Of a stretch of DNA of 8,372 bases, positions 768-4,946 are shown piece after piece; within the stretch, counting starts at the first letter, position 1, and each line of letters begins with the position of its first letter. Source of the DNA: a virus (lineage: Duplodnaviria > Heunggongvirae > Uroviricota > Caudoviricetes); the IMG/VR virus record IMGVR_UViG_2519899564_000011, positions 1 through 8,372 of that record, one strand, 5' to 3'. The translations under genes were made by a program, and so were the position numbers. Under the pieces are notes generated by a model that saw only the letters and a list, made by a program, of their open reading frames with translations, was not told where the DNA came from and made no database searches.

Positions 768-2144
768 TCATACGTCAGCCCCTTGTGCATATCGTCTGCC
801 ACGCGAAGCAGGTGCATTTGATGCTGTGCAAATCTGTCTGGCTTCATCCTGGTCACATGCAACAAAGTGTCCGTTACAGAACCGCTGGTAAACCGTACCA
901 AGTGGGCCAAACCGGTTTTTCGTCACAATGATTTCAGCAAATGGTGCGGCGCTACTGTTCTCGTCATATACCGCTTCCCGATAGAGCATGATGATTGAGT
1001 CTGCGTCCTGCTCAATGCTTCCTGAATCACGCAAATCTGCGTTTGTCGGGCGTTTGTTTGGTCGCTTCTCAACATCGCGCGAAAGCTGACTTAGGGAGAT
1101 AACAGGCGTTTTCAGGTCTTTCGCCATCGCCTTCAGGCTTCCTGAGATGTGAGCAATTGCGAGGTCGTTGCGGTCTGCTTTCGGCTTCTCAATCAGGCCA
1201 AGATAATCCGCCATGATGAGTGACAGGTTTGGATTTTCCTGTTTGTTCCGCTCTGCGATTGAGCGAATTTCTTCTACCGATAACCGCGAGGCATCGACTA
1301 CCCATACATCCAAATCTGCAAGCTGACTCATGCCGTTAGCAACACGCGCCCAGCCTTCGTCATCCATCGATGCAGGATTTCGCAGTACGCTAACCGACAT
1401 CCTCCCGGCGTTGGCAATGCTCCGCTCTGCAATCTGCAATGCGCTCATTTCCATCGAGAAAATCAACACTCCGCGCCGGACGTCAGAACCAGGAATAACG
1501 CGGCTTGCAACACCTTCGGCAATCTTCAGCGCCAGTTCGGTTTTCCCCATACCAGGACGAGCGGCGATAATCACCAGGTCTTCCGCGTTCATCCCTCCGG
1601 TGATGGCGTCAAGTTCTTCGATTCCGGTCTTCAGGGTATCTGACTCTTCTCCGTTCCTCAGACGCCTGTCAAGCGTGTCAGTGTAGTCAGTGATGATTTC
1701 CCCTAACCGTACAGGTTTAACCTCGTCACGGGGCTTTCTGATGGCTGAGAGACGCTTTACAAGCTCGTCCATCGCCTGACTCGATGTATCGATGGTTCCG
1801 CTCTGAATTGGTTCACGCATTTCGTCCATGATTTCCAGCACCAGACGGCGGTGATAGTTATCCGCGACCATTCCGGCATATCCCTTCAGGTTTGCGGCAC
1901 TCGGGCAGTTTTTGCTGGTCATCAGGATTGACGTGAAATGCTCCTCTCCGCACGCCTCGGCAACCATCAGCGCGTCGATTAGGTTTCTGTTTCTCGCCTG
2001 CTTACGGATAACTTCGAAGGCTTTCCGGTAGAGCGGAATTGAAAACGCTTCCGGCTCCAGCGTTGCCAGAACGTCGCTGGCGGTTGGTGTTAATCCACCA
2101 ATCAGCAAGCCACCGATAACGCTCGCTTCGATATCCTGTCTCAT
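768..2144 (-). CDS. replicative DNA helicase, DnaB family (phage P22 gene 12-like, lambda P position)
   Basis: 458-aa ORF; Walker A motif ARPGMGKT; DnaB-like N-terminal domain and RecA-fold C-terminal region; start codon overlaps the upstream O-like stop (ATGA at 2141-2144). Confidence 0.9.
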
Positions 2145-2962
2145 GCAATCCCCCTGTCTGCAAACTTCCCTTCCCGAACTCCCGTTAACGAGTCTTCCCT
2201 CAGCAGGTAATCAAAATCTGCCGTCCAGCCCGTGTCGTTGTCTCCGAAGTAAAACGGCTTGGCCTGATGCACAAACGCCCTGACATACGCTCTGAAACCG
2301 TCCACGTTTGGCGTTTTCAGTTGCGGGATGATTTTCTTCAGGCGGCGTTTTCGTTTCTCGTTGACCGCAACAGCGTGTGGAAGTCTGTCACCGACTTCGG
2401 TGTTGTAGGCGTTCAGGAAGGATTCGTAGTCGATTCGTTCTGCCTTGCGACGTTCAGGTTTAACCTGCCCATCGCCGCCCCCGTTAGGGGGTAAGGGGGT
2501 ATTTGTATTTATTGTCTTTTGTATATTGTCTTTTGTGTTTAGCTGACTTGGCTTATACCCATTAGCCGACTCGGCTAATGTTTTATTAGCTGTTTTAGCT
2601 AATGTTAAGCTGTCCTGGCTAATCCACTGAGAAACCACCTTGTTCACTCCGATTTTCACGCCATCAGCAATGAGGAATTTACGCTCAATAAGCTGGCGCT
2701 TGGCAGCGCAAACATGAGTGTGATGAATACCTGTCATGGCTGCTATCTGCGTGTTTGTGAGTCGATCCATCGGCTTATTGAATCCGTATGTCTTGCGCAT
2801 GATAGCGAGCATCACCTTCATCTGCCGGACGGTTAAATCAGCCATCAGCAGACTGTCGATAATCTCGTTAGCAACGCGCATGAAACCATCTTCGGTATCT
2901 GCCACGCGATGCTCCACGACCTCCAGTTGAGGCCTGTAATCAGCTAACTTAACGACGCCCAT
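2141..2962 (-). CDS. replication initiation protein, lambda O-like
   Basis: 273 aa; N-terminal region ([31 protein letters not shown]) resembles lambda O as I recall it (LTKRQFKVLLAILRKTYGWNKPMDRITDSQL); an iteron array and AT-rich tract sit inside the gene as in lambda ori. Confidence 0.85.
2497..2623 (-). repeat. origin of replication inside the O-like gene: four iterons plus AT-rich tract
   Basis: Four roughly 19-bp repeats with internal dyad symmetry TTAGC-N7-GCTAA at about 2538-2556, 2561-2579, 2585-2603 and 2603-2622; adjacent AT-rich tract 2497-2540 containing ATTGTCTTTTGT twice; GC hairpin CCCCCGTTAGGGGG at 2476-2489. Confidence 0.6.
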
Positions 2963-3110
2963 GTTTCACTCCTGCTTTGGCTAGTCTGTAAACACCAACA
3001 AGGCGCTCTGCGAACGCCCTGTTATTTGCTGCGGCTACCACTAATCCCTCAGGTGAATCAGGGTGTCGAATCTCTTCTTTTTCCTGGTATTTCTTACGAC
3101 GTTTTGTCAT
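2949..3110 (-). CDS. small basic hypothetical protein (53 aa) between cII and O
   Basis: Not in the ORF track (under 60 aa). ATG at 3110 with AGGAG 5-6 nt upstream on the minus strand; product [53 protein letters not shown]; stop overlaps the O-like start. Confidence 0.35.
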   Translation of the reverse strand: MTKRRKKYQEKEEIRHPDSPEGLVVAAANNRAFAERLVGVYRLAKAGVKHGRR

Positions 3111-3145
3111 AATTACTCCTGTGGATTGATACAGTCTTTCTACAA

Positions 3146-3424
3146 TCAGGCCTCAAAACTGTTGCCGCAGTCTTGAGGCTTTTCTTTTGTCAGCACCATG
3201 GCTACTTTCTTTGCCAGCTCCGCTAATTCCTCGTCTTCAACACCCCACTCCAGCACAGCCAGAAGCATGGCCATCTTTGGGATAAAGCTGTCTTTCCATC
3301 GCGAAATTTGCGATTCATTGATCCCTAATGCATCAGCAACCTTTCGCTGACCACGTACAGCAATTCGATTCAGGATGTTGCTTGTAATTGCATTCGCTTT
3401 CTTGCGAGTACTTGTAAGTTCCAT
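3146..3424 (-). CDS. cII: transcriptional activator CII
   Basis: From the ATG at 3424 (AAGGAAA about 9 nt upstream) the product contains GINESQISRWKDSFIPKMAMLLAVLEWGV, close to lambda CII as I recall it (GVDKSQISRWKRDWIPKFSMLLAVLEWGV). The ORF-track start at 3511 is rejected because it runs through nutR. Confidence 0.85.
   Translation of the reverse strand: MELTSTRKKANAITSNILNRIAVRGQRKVADALGINESQISRWKDSFIPKMAMLLAVLEWGVEDEELAELAKKVAMVLTKEKPQDCGNSFEA
3148..3189 (+). terminator. plus-strand intrinsic terminator antisense to the cII 3' end (oop-RNA-like)
   Basis: Stem GCCTCAA (3150-3156) / TTGAGGC (3173-3179) followed by TTTTCTTTTG (3180-3189) on the plus strand, while cII is on the minus strand ending at 3146. 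Confidence 0.5.
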
Positions 3425-3481
3425 ATGTAAGTATTTCCTTAACAAATAAGAAGTTATGCGCATCAACTTATGCGCGTTGTA

Positions 3482-3526
3482 TTCCCGCATTTCGGCGGGA
3501 ATGAGGACCATGACTGTTAAAGAGCG
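3482..3526 (-). promoter_or_regulatory. nutR (boxA plus boxB) between cro and cII
   Basis: Minus-strand CGCTCTTTAACA (revcomp of 3515-3526) matches the boxA consensus; minus-strand TCCCGCCGAAATGCGGGAA (revcomp of 3482-3500) is a 5-6 bp stem-loop and is identical to the boxB candidate at 5223-5241. Confidence 0.7.
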
Positions 3527-3533
3527 GTGTTAC

Positions 3534-3758
3534 TTATGCTGCCTGATTCGGTTTTGGAAACAGGTGTGGCAAATCGGGGCGAATTTCGTAAGCCTTGATC
3601 TGCCCTCCAGTGGCGTTAACGATGGCGGTAACTTTCTCTGGAGAGACCAACCCGCCTTTCAGCCATTTGTGTACTGCTGGCTGCGTTACACCACACTTGT
3701 CGGCAAGGCGCTTTTGGCTACCGACAATTTTCAAGGCTCGTTGAATTACTAAATTCAT
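3534..3758 (-). CDS. cro: Cro-like HTH repressor
   Basis: First gene leftward from the operator region, divergent from cI; HTH-like segment GSQKRLADKCGVTQPAVHKWLK; preferred start ATG at 3758 has AGAGGT 6 nt upstream, whereas the ORF-track start at 3779 has no SD. Confidence 0.7.
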   Translation of the reverse strand: MNLVIQRALKIVGSQKRLADKCGVTQPAVHKWLKGGLVSPEKVTAIVNATGGQIKAYEIRPDLPHLFPKPNQAA

Positions 3759-3789
3759 GAGCATACCTCTTGTGGTCATTACTTATAAC

Positions 3790-3860
3790 CAAAGATAACT
3801 CAAGTTATAAAAAATAGCAATAACCTTTGTTATTTTACTTTGGATAACCGTAGTTATAGA
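3790..3860. promoter_or_regulatory. OR operator region with divergent promoters (PR leftward, PRM rightward)
   Basis: Three 14-bp palindromes ATAAC-N4-GTTAT at 3795-3808, 3820-3833 and 3844-3857, spaced about 24-25 bp. Candidate PR on the minus strand: -35 TTGCTA (3820-3815), 17-bp spacer, -10 TATCTT (3797-3792). Confidence 0.65.
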
Positions 3861-3869
3861 TTTGTGGGT

Positions 3870-4577
3870 ATGAAAACATTCGCAGAAAGACTAAATGCAG
3901 CCATGAGCTCAGCAGGGGTATCACAATCACAGCTTGCTGACATGGTTGGAATATCTCAGCCAGCCATACAGAAGATGTCGTCCGGTAAAACAAACGGATC
4001 TCGCAAGATGGTTGAATTAGCCAATGCTTTAAAAGTGCGCCCTGAATGGCTTAGTTCTGGTATTGGTGAAATGAGGGATGGTGCACATGAAGAACCATCC
4101 AATGTCCGTGATTCATCTTTAAAAGCTGTGGTATGGGAAGACATTAAAAGAAACGATGACGAGTTTGTTGCGTTGCCTCTTCTTAACGTTTCGCTTTCAG
4201 CTGGAAGCGGTAGCTGCGAGCTAGAGGAATCATCGGAGTTCTCTTTGGTTTTCAGAAAGCACTATCTGAAAAAGATGGGAGTATCTGAAAGATCAGCCAA
4301 GCTAGTTAGGGTTGTAGGGCAAAGCATGGAACCAACGCTTCACGATGGCGATGTTGTTGGTGTTAACACGCAAGATACCACAATCAGAGATGGTAAAACC
4401 TACGCTATTTGCCAGTCTGATTTGTTACGAGTAAAAACATTAATCGCCACCCCTACATCGGTGATAATCAGATCAATAAATCGCGAAGAGTACCCGGATG
4501 AAGTAATGGATAGAGATGAATTTCATGAAACCGTAAGGATTATTGGCAGAGTATTCTGGTCGTCTCATAGTTGGTAA
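3870..4577 (+). CDS. cI: CI repressor (N-terminal HTH, C-terminal S24 LexA-like autopeptidase domain)
   Basis: HTH region QSQLADMVGISQPAIQKM; Ala-Gly candidate cleavage site in LSAGSG; Ser in GQSMEP and Lys in LRVKT fit the LexA/cI catalytic dyad. ATG at 3870 preferred over the ORF-track TTG at 3840, which lies inside an operator. Confidence 0.85.
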   Translation: MKTFAERLNAAMSSAGVSQSQLADMVGISQPAIQKMSSGKTNGSRKMVELANALKVRPEWLSSGIGEMRDGAHEEPSNVRDSSLKAVVWEDIKRNDDEFVALPLLNVSLSAGSGSCELEESSEFSLVFRKHYLKKMGVSERSAKLVRVVGQSMEPTLHDGDVVGVNTQDTTIRDGKTYAICQSDLLRVKTLIATPTSVIIRSINREEYPDEVMDRDEFHETVRIIGRVFWSSHSW

Positions 4578-4617: not shown

Positions 4618-4914
4618 ATGGAATTTCTGATAGTTTTTGTTGTTGTTTTGGTCATCATTCTTTTTGTTTTGCTAAGCATTAGTAAAAAGCTATCTCAAAT
4701 GATTGAACATAGCTCTAATCGTGCAAAAGAAGAAGAGCATATAATTGATATAAAAGAGATTCTCTCTGATATAAAAATCACATTAGATGAAATAAAATAC
4801 ACAACAGATCTAATTGAACAGTATAAAATACCAACCCCAAACGAGAGAAAAGCAATAGATCAATATCGTATTGACTTAGAAATCGACGAAATGCTAAGCA
4901 AAAGAAAAGACTAA
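4618..4914 (+). CDS. hypothetical single-pass membrane protein in the rex position (cI-linked moron)
   Basis: ATG at 4618 with GGAGGG 5 nt upstream; 98 aa with an N-terminal hydrophobic helix (LIVFVVVLVIILFVLLSI) and a charged helical C-terminal region; strongly AT-rich; about 40 nt after the cI stop and followed by a strong terminator. Confidence 0.55.
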   Translation: MEFLIVFVVVLVIILFVLLSISKKLSQMIEHSSNRAKEEEHIIDIKEILSDIKITLDEIKYTTDLIEQYKIPTPNERKAIDQYRIDLEIDEMLSKRKD

Positions 4915-4919
4915 AAACA

Positions 4920-4946
4920 CCCGGCCTCAGCGCCGGGTTTTCTTTT
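4920..4946 (+). terminator. intrinsic terminator ending the cI-moron transcript
   Basis: GC-rich stem CCCGGC (4920-4925) / GCCGGG (4932-4937) followed by TTTTCTTTTCC. Confidence 0.7.

Follow-up and report, generated by a model that had tools for sequence, protein, structure and literature searches.

The oop RNA of lambdoid phages has been known for about 50 years. In phage lambda, OOP is antisense to cII and acts in an RNase III-dependent manner (PMC5869508, PMC3985674, PMC12197685); such down-regulation of cII through RNase III is known from lambda alone. The lambda oop promoter, pO, also acts in cis by damping convergent transcription from pR, and it affects replication (PMC3985674). The oop gene is dispensable for lambda growth (PMC5869508). 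In lambda, the 5' end of OOP is at 38675 and the -10 element of pO precedes it by 8-13 nt; a fragment that contains only the -10 and -35 elements (pO45) is non-functional, with 94 bp extending into gene O being required (PMC5869508). As cited in the same paper, a LexA site in the lambda oop-pO region was described by Lewis et al. 1994 (PMC5869508). Neither the GenBank nor the RefSeq record of lambda annotates oop; the lambda oop coordinates used here were taken from PMC5869508.

Relatives of lambda oop have been recognized in many phages. Hayes et al. 2012 described a conserved 33-bp sequence that spans the oop promoter and the RNA 5' end, and oop was placed by this sequence in lambda, 434, 21, several Stx phages, HK022, HK97, and P22 (PMC3349717). 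The presence of oop-like sequences in the cII-O regions of Stx phages is already stated in reviews (PMC5488031, PMC12197685). Small-RNA sequencing of P22 (2026) detected a 63-nt RNA, P22C-oop, which is antisense to c1, the P22 homologue of cII (PMC13397905). In BTP1, a P22-like Salmonella prophage, an OOP transcript was annotated from the transcriptome; the coordinates of the OOP start site were not found in the supplement of that paper (PMC7067206).

The DNA analyzed here, referred to as the window, is a stretch of 8,372 nucleotides from a tailed-phage record. It is highly likely, with a probability of about 0.88, that positions 3085-3188 of the window constitute a lambdoid pO-oop-tO unit of the P22-type allele, which would yield a 64-67 nt antisense RNA against cII. 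The unit itself is already known and ordinary; the P22-type allele is annotated in GenBank and has been RNA-sequenced before.

Genomic context

The window corresponds to a lambdoid immunity and replication region that is reversed relative to the usual lambda map. Positions 2940-3530 are 100% identical to the Stx1a-converting phage Stx1a_10051, and the 111-bp oop core has a 100% match in a prophage of E. coli O26:H11 11368, for which RefSeq annotates the same genes and no RNA. Unlike P22, the phage examined here is an Stx1a-converting phage of E. coli. The features considered are the following.

768-2144, minus strand: DnaB-like helicase
2141-2962, minus strand: O-like replication protein
2949-3110, minus strand: 53-aa ORF (PHROG 1331, E=1.4e-37)
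3085-3113, plus strand: pO-like promoter, with a weak -35, a 17-bp spacer, and an extended -10
3103-3135, minus strand: 33-bp "pO promoter + oop 5' end" signature of lambdoid phages, 32/33 match
3117-3136: LexA-box-like palindrome TCCTGTGGATTGATACAGTC, with the core CTGT-N8-ACAG at 3119-3134
3121-3187, plus strand: predicted oop RNA, 64-67 nt, from alignment to P22C-oop and the lambda +1 rule
3146-3424, minus strand: cII (Pfam PF05269, Phage_CII, E=1e-44; PHROG 191; RefSeq CDS)
3148-3188, plus strand: tO-like intrinsic terminator, with a hairpin at 3148-3181 and then a U-tract at 3180-3188
3534-3779, minus strand: cro
3840-4577, plus strand: cI-type repressor

The 53-aa ORF is a homologue of HK97 gp53 and Sf6 gene 42, and is annotated also in Sf6, ES18, HK633, and RefSeq. 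In lambda, gene O occupies the place held here by this ORF. The stop codon of cII is a TGA at 3146-3148, and the translated C-terminus of CII is ...LTKEKPQDCGNSFEA. A preliminary description of this DNA had regarded 3095-3135 as an AT-rich intergenic stretch. The base composition is as described, with a GC content of 0.37 compared to 0.454 for the whole window, but 3095-3110 are the first codons of the 53-aa ORF, and the true spacer between cII and this ORF is restricted to 3111-3145. The placement of the element is that of lambdoid oop, between cII and the replication genes and convergent to cII, with the 3' end inside cII.

The putative promoter region

The extended -10 of the pO-like promoter is TGTCATAAT at 3105-3113, with TG at 3105-3106 and CATAAT at 3108-3113. 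The -35 position is occupied by TGGTAT (3085-3090), which has 2/6 matches at 17-bp spacing. On the minus strand, the 53-aa ORF shares the positions of its ATG (3108-3110) with the -10, and both this start codon and the Shine-Dalgarno sequence of the ORF, GGAG (complement of 3116-3119), are interleaved with pO. CATAAT is followed by TACTCCT (7 nt) and then by G3121. The window aligns column for column with lambda pO in both the CATAAT -10 and the +1 spacing. In the lambda sequence, CATAAT is the complement of the O start codon region and is followed by 7 nt and the starting G, such that in both phages the -10 lies over the start codon of the next rightward gene with a G start 7 nt downstream. 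The -35 is situated within the small ORF here and within gene O in lambda. The pO-like promoter is positionally equivalent not only to lambda pO but also to the oop promoter annotated in P22virB-3 (GenBank OQ031658). In that record, the feature "promoter: oop; similar to phage lambda" corresponds to window 3085-3113, and the feature "terminator: oop" corresponds to about 3140-3183. A feature described as "similar to lambda oop mRNA" is annotated at the homologous site of HK633.

The -35 element is TGGTAT here, TGGTCA in P22, and TTGAGT in lambda. The difference from P22 results from a different upstream module, which is orf48 in P22 and the 53-aa HK97-gp53-type ORF here. Promoter strength is not transferable from lambda or P22 because the upstream DNA belongs to this different module. 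A generic promoter scan of the window did not call the pO site, owing to the weak -35, since the rule of the scan needs at least 4/6 matches in the -35. Extended -10 promoters can function without a good -35.

The literature signature ACTGGATCaATCcACAGGAGTaATTATGaCAAA was matched at 32 of its 33 positions at 3103-3135 on the minus strand, compared to no matches in 200 shuffles. In Sf6, a "boundary sequence" (bsq5), which marks a mosaic boundary, is annotated at the position of the signature. The junction between the upstream module and the oop body coincides with this annotated boundary.

Two other assignments of promoter elements were considered and rejected. The preliminary description had suggested TTGTCA at 3104-3109 as a possible -35. 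This hexamer overlaps the extended -10, as the lambda pO alignment places TTGTCA over TGTCATAAT. Moreover, the -10 candidates 16-18 bp downstream of TTGTCA match TATAAT at just 2-3 of six positions, and the implied start would be downstream of the 5' end observed in P22. The combination of TTGATA (3126-3131) with TACAAT (3141-3146) as an alternative promoter has a spacer of merely 9 bp.

The terminator and the predicted RNA

The hairpin at 3148-3181 comprises 14 pairs with a single A.C mismatch at 3157/3172 and a UGCC tetraloop at 3163-3166; its G+C core extends from 3150 to 3179. The U-tract TTTTCTTTT follows at 3180-3188. The fold has a dG of -18.5 kcal/mol and a z of -4.58, and none of 200 dinucleotide shuffles was as stable (0/200). 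The hairpin and U-tract of the plus strand both sit within the final 13 codons of minus-strand cII, which bears out the proposal of the preliminary description that a hairpin and T-tract lie inside the last codons of this gene. On the plus strand the hairpin runs into UUUUCUUUU, the arrangement of a self-terminating transcript, whereas the minus-strand copy of the hairpin is followed by CUGAUUGUAG and lacks a U-tract, indicating the hairpin is a terminator for plus-strand transcription only. The covariance model R1 gave 78.3 bits at 3145-3189 on the plus strand. A generic terminator scan of the window made no call at the oop hairpin because the rule used does not handle the internal mismatch.

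The 5' end of the RNA is predicted to be G3121, according to the lambda rule that +1 is 7 nt after CATAAT, or G3124, according to the P22 reads; the two positions are 3 nt apart. The 3' end is predicted to be in the U-tract, at about 3185-3188. The predicted RNA folds with a dG of -25.7 kcal/mol and a z of -4.9. At the 3' end, 42 nt of the RNA can pair without a mismatch with the stop codon of cII and the 13 codons before it (3146-3187); the 25 nt at the 5' end are complementary to the spacer that separates cII from the next gene. A short antisense RNA of roughly 50-80 nt had been proposed for this site, which is supported by homology to RNAs observed experimentally in related phages, with a predicted length of 64-67 nt.

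The RNA detected in P22 is nearly identical to the predicted RNA. Positions 3124-3187 of the window and the 63-nt P22C-oop have three differences, consisting of two substitutions and one extra A. The two loci share the same terminator stem, CATAAT with an upstream TG, and a position opposite the end of cII or its homologue c1. The loop of the hairpin is UGCC here compared to UCCC in P22, the extra A is at 3144/3145 in the spacer, and A3131 makes the LexA-like core a perfect CTGT-N8-ACAG. Lambda is more distant. The 5' segment CTGT..GAT.CAG and the location of the terminator inside the cII 3' end are conserved, and the hairpin apex GUUGCCGC is identical, but no sequence relationship is seen in the middle segment or in the stems, and nothing here clearly corresponds to the 5' stem-loop of lambda OOP. 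The predicted RNA is also shorter than lambda OOP (64-67 nt compared to 77 nt), as is the overlap with cII (42 nt compared to 52-55 nt). The OOP of BTP1 resembles the element in its layout, -10, and 5' segment, but it has a different hairpin allele (GGCCUCGAAGAAU...) with compensatory changes, and the CII tail differs. The homologues in P22 and BTP1 and the annotation in OQ031658 all back the suggestion of the preliminary description that the arrangement at the cII 3' end is like that of lambda oop.

Conservation of the element

In lambda, in BTP1, and in all the phages compared from Hafnia, Yersinia, Klebsiella, Enterobacter, Erwinia, and Edwardsiella, CATAAT sits at the start codon of the gene downstream. 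An antisense hairpin with a U-tract begins 32-50 nt inside the cII end in BTP1, lambda, Klebsiella RCIP0098, and the phages of Hafnia, Yersinia, Enterobacter, Erwinia, and Edwardsiella; in two other Klebsiella phages, the hairpin is located beyond the annotated cII stop. The stem sequences of the hairpins inside the cII end are very different among these phages of several genera.

A scan of IMG/VR with the upstream signature alone yielded at least 120 loci. Among the matches listed, a hairpin is present at the expected distance in 120/120 loci. A canonical U-tract follows in 96 of the 120 loci listed, with at least 26 distinct hairpin sequences, and the remaining 24 loci are of a Klebsiella type with an interrupted U-tract. 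The oop body is joined to many upstream modules, as revealed by at least 41 distinct 30-nt upstream sequences among the 120 loci listed. The gp53-type module found here is the commonest (27/120 of the loci listed). TTTG(T/G)CATAAT is retained beside all upstream modules among the matches listed.

The pairing of the hairpin arms was assessed with chimeras composed of the 5' arm of one allele and the 3' arm of another. Among the loci listed, native hairpins have a mean of -16.7 kcal/mol compared to -8.1 kcal/mol for arm-swapped chimeras, and none of 5000 arm permutations reached the native mean stability, in a test that somewhat favours native hairpins because each of these was delimited by folding its own allele and the sequences share ancestry. 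The arm-swap result was the same with trimmed hairpins from ten hand-picked alleles. Permutations were used instead of pair counts, as the pooled alignment from the R1 search, which recovered the oop-strand hairpins, also includes reverse-strand copies and unrelated terminators. A MAFFT alignment of the hairpin alleles placed stems of unequal length out of register and was likewise not used for pair counts.

The hairpin alleles encode differing CII tails (KPQDCGNSFEA, APKNGEFFEA, RPAATERSE...) and keep the stem. Since the tails vary while the stem stays, conservation of the protein is not enough to account for the structure. Coding could nevertheless be responsible for some of the conservation, because translation of the downstream gene uses the -10 region as its start codon and ribosome-binding region, and the CII tail is encoded by the hairpin and U-tract.

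Alternative explanations

It seems unlikely that the unit acts mainly in cis, with convergent transcription from pO against pR tuning the replication genes or origin activation, and with the RNA as a by-product or minor regulator. Such a role has precedent in lambda, in which inactivation of pO raises read-through from pR and impairs both phage and plasmid replication, and in which additional oop RNA provided in trans causes little change in plasmid copy number (PMC3985674). It would also be consistent with the position of pO directly upstream of the replication module here too, and with the dispensability of oop for lambda growth. However, CII function is blocked when OOP is provided in trans, both in lambda and in heteroimmune hybrids (PMC5869508, PMC3349717). 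For a role restricted to cis, there would be no need to place a terminator inside cII or to maintain co-variation of the hairpin arms across dozens of alleles. The cis and antisense roles of an oop unit can coexist. It is considerably less probable that the locus is a silent relic or a by-product of coding, in which the hairpin and U-tract are kept for the CII tail and CATAAT for the start of the 53-aa ORF, and no RNA is produced. In favour of this reading, the -35 is weak and went uncalled in the promoter scan, conserved TKEK/TNKK codons account for the U-tract and FEA for the 5' arm, and the lambda pO45 fragment is inactive (PMC5869508). Yet the extended -10 (TGn) is kept beside at least 41 different upstream modules, and promoters of this type can work despite a poor -35. 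Furthermore, the stem is retained while the encoded peptide changes, and the apex 8-mer GUUGCCGC is common to lambda, where it occurs in a different codon frame. Expression of the P22 allele occurs with a -35 that is just slightly better (TGGTCA) than the one here (PMC13397905).

The remaining two explanations account for the hairpin in other ways. The hairpin and U-tract could terminate longer plus-strand antisense transcripts that originate in the replication genes, with no dedicated short RNA. The terminator would halt any plus-strand transcript that reaches it, and antisense transcription is common in prophages (PMC7067206). This explanation is nonetheless very improbable, given that a generic scan revealed no plus-strand promoter-like site in 2100-3085, and that the P22 reads represent a discrete 63-nt species with its 5' end just downstream of the conserved -10 (PMC13397905). 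Membership of the element in the family of P22 sar RNA (Rfam RF00262) can be dismissed almost entirely. The sar model is the sole Rfam match obtained with cmscan (3106-3185, plus strand, 18.4 bits, E=1.1), and it arises from a shared upper stem-loop, ACUGUUxCCGCAGU; P22 sar resembles the predicted RNA in being a short antisense RNA of a phage, and the upper stem-loops of their terminators are alike. However, 18.4 bits is far from the gathering threshold of 43, and the alignment disrupts the model's 5' helix. The sar locus is in immI and is antisense to ant, whereas the element examined here is opposite cII. An oop unit that produces a short antisense RNA against cII is the preferred reading.

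Proposed function

By comparison with lambda and P22, RNA polymerase would start on the plus strand from the extended -10 TGTCATAAT, at about G3121-G3124, and transcription in the Stx1a phage would end at the hairpin and U-tract (3148-3188) to release an RNA of 64-67 nt. The 3' 42 nt of this RNA are expected to pair with the convergent cII message. By analogy with lambda OOP, RNase III would cut the oop-cII duplex, and the cII part of the pR transcript would be destabilised, resulting in less CII. A lower level of CII would, as in the lambda model, shift the decision from lysogeny toward lytic growth. Convergent transcription from pO may also damp pR read-through into the replication genes. 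Since lambda can grow without oop, the physiological effect of the RNA may be small.

A LexA-type palindrome across the start may couple oop to the SOS response. The palindrome at 3117-3136 covers the predicted transcription start and matches the 20-nt consensus at 14/20 positions, and CTGTGGATTGATACAG at 3119-3134 is the sole CTGT-N8-ACAG in the window, compared to 0.10 expected. The corresponding site reads CTGT-N8-CCAG in lambda and most relatives, in contrast to CTGT-N8-ACAG here. One possibility suggested by the sequence, though a doubtful one, is that the C-to-A change at 3131 perfects a putative LexA operator, which would allow SOS-induced oop to shut off CII, and, in addition, that the apex GU[UNNC]GC could serve as a recognition loop instead of being a neutral part of the terminator. 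If true, SOS-induced oop would reinforce lytic commitment on DNA damage, and hence Shiga-toxin release. The apex GU[UNNC]GC is widely conserved, and is retained in different cII reading frames.

Annotation and significance

As a discovery, the oop unit described here carries little weight; the practical point is annotation. Rfam 15 contains no oop model, and lambda's own oop gives no match to it. The element is widespread, an oop match being present in 870 of 5426 complete E. coli genomes. The lack of an Rfam model explains why oop is unannotated in the 870 matching genomes and in most phage records. This gap would be closed by a covariance model based on the at least 26 co-varying alleles. 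In Stx prophages, a brake of this antisense kind on CII, which LexA may control, would matter for the choice between lysogeny and lysis on which the release of toxin depends.

Results and Discussion

The end of cII carries two layers of information. Window positions 3146-3188, read as minus-strand codons, are coding on two levels, specifying both the tail of CII and the terminator of oop, the short antisense RNA gene convergent to cII. The U-tract of oop is the complement of conserved Lys-rich cII codons, which encode TKEK in the window and TNKK in lambda. The F-E-A codons at the C-terminal end of cII are likewise complementary to the hairpin's 5' arm, and the CII residues that lie between F-E-A and the Lys-rich codons change along with the hairpin stem.

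3161-3168: apex of the oop terminator hairpin, 8-mer GUUGCCGC

The apex GU[UNNC]GC is present in 17 of the 26 distinct oop terminator alleles among the matches listed for loci L101-L220, which carry the 5' signature of oop and its predicted promoter, pO; the stems beneath this apex vary between alleles. Lambda oop has the identical apex 8-mer, but the codon frame on the cII strand differs between lambda and the window. The same upper stem-loop accounts for a weak match of the window to the Rfam family 'sar'.

The oop promoter contains a mosaic junction (window 3085-3113; loci L010-L089 and L101-L220), with the break located between the -10 and -35 elements. Among the matches listed, one oop/cII body is joined to at least 41 distinct 30-nt upstream modules, which include a gp53-type ORF, a P22 orf48-type ORF, lambda O and others. 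CCTGGTA is kept at the -35 position in several upstream modules that look unrelated. In Sf6, the same spot is annotated as 'boundary sequence'.

Several candidate regulatory and replication motifs are found at the start of oop and nearby:

3117-3136: LexA-box-like palindrome TCCTGTGGATTGATACAGTC, spanning the predicted oop start
3120-3128: DnaA-box-like candidate TGTGGATTG (complement CAATCCACA), just downstream of pO, 7/9 against the consensus TTATCCACA by sequence reading only
3378-3391, plus strand: exact TTGC-N6-TTGC (TTGCTTGTAATTGC), within cII, in its 5' portion
2538-2623, within the O-like gene: direct repeats resembling iterons, four copies of (A)TTAGCYGnnnnGGCTAAT

Most relatives (P22, BTP1, lambda, and Yersinia and Klebsiella phages) have CCAG in place of ACAG, but A3131 gives the LexA-box-like palindrome of the window allele a perfect CTGT-N8-ACAG core. 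This core occurs once in the whole window, versus 0.10 occurrences expected. In lambda, DnaA-protected sites have been reported downstream of pO (PMC3985674). The TTGC-N6-TTGC sequence is located where Sf6, HK620 and P22 have the annotated site at which CII binds PRE, the establishment promoter. The iteron-like repeats, which are spaced at 20-24 bp and are each partly palindromic, are probably the replication origin, and the origins of Sf6, ES18 and lambda are annotated in the corresponding position.

Three further features lie elsewhere in the window:

742-719, minus strand: terminator-like hairpin, just downstream of the DnaB-like gene
4919-4938: G+C-rich hairpin with T-runs on both strands, 3' of ORF 4618-4914
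6869-7729, plus strand: 286-aa ORF, part of which is a long E-, A-, K- and R-rich stretch of high charge

The hairpin at 742-719 is also matched weakly by R1, the covariance model built on the oop terminator hairpin. The T-runs on both strands make the hairpin at 4919-4938 a candidate bidirectional terminator. The charged stretch of the 286-aa ORF is a probable coiled coil, and the antisense frames of this ORF contain long spurious ORFs.

Finally, a sub-family with the same pO/oop 5' signature comprises 24 Klebsiella-type loci among the matches listed (L101-L220), as well as L097 and L099. In the Klebsiella-type loci, the U-tract after the hairpin AAAGCCG...CGGCUUUC is interrupted (UUUCGCCUUUCUG), and the hairpin itself is positioned past the point where a shorter cII is annotated to stop. 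Therefore, both the termination efficiency of Klebsiella-type oop and its overlap with cII may differ from those of the others.
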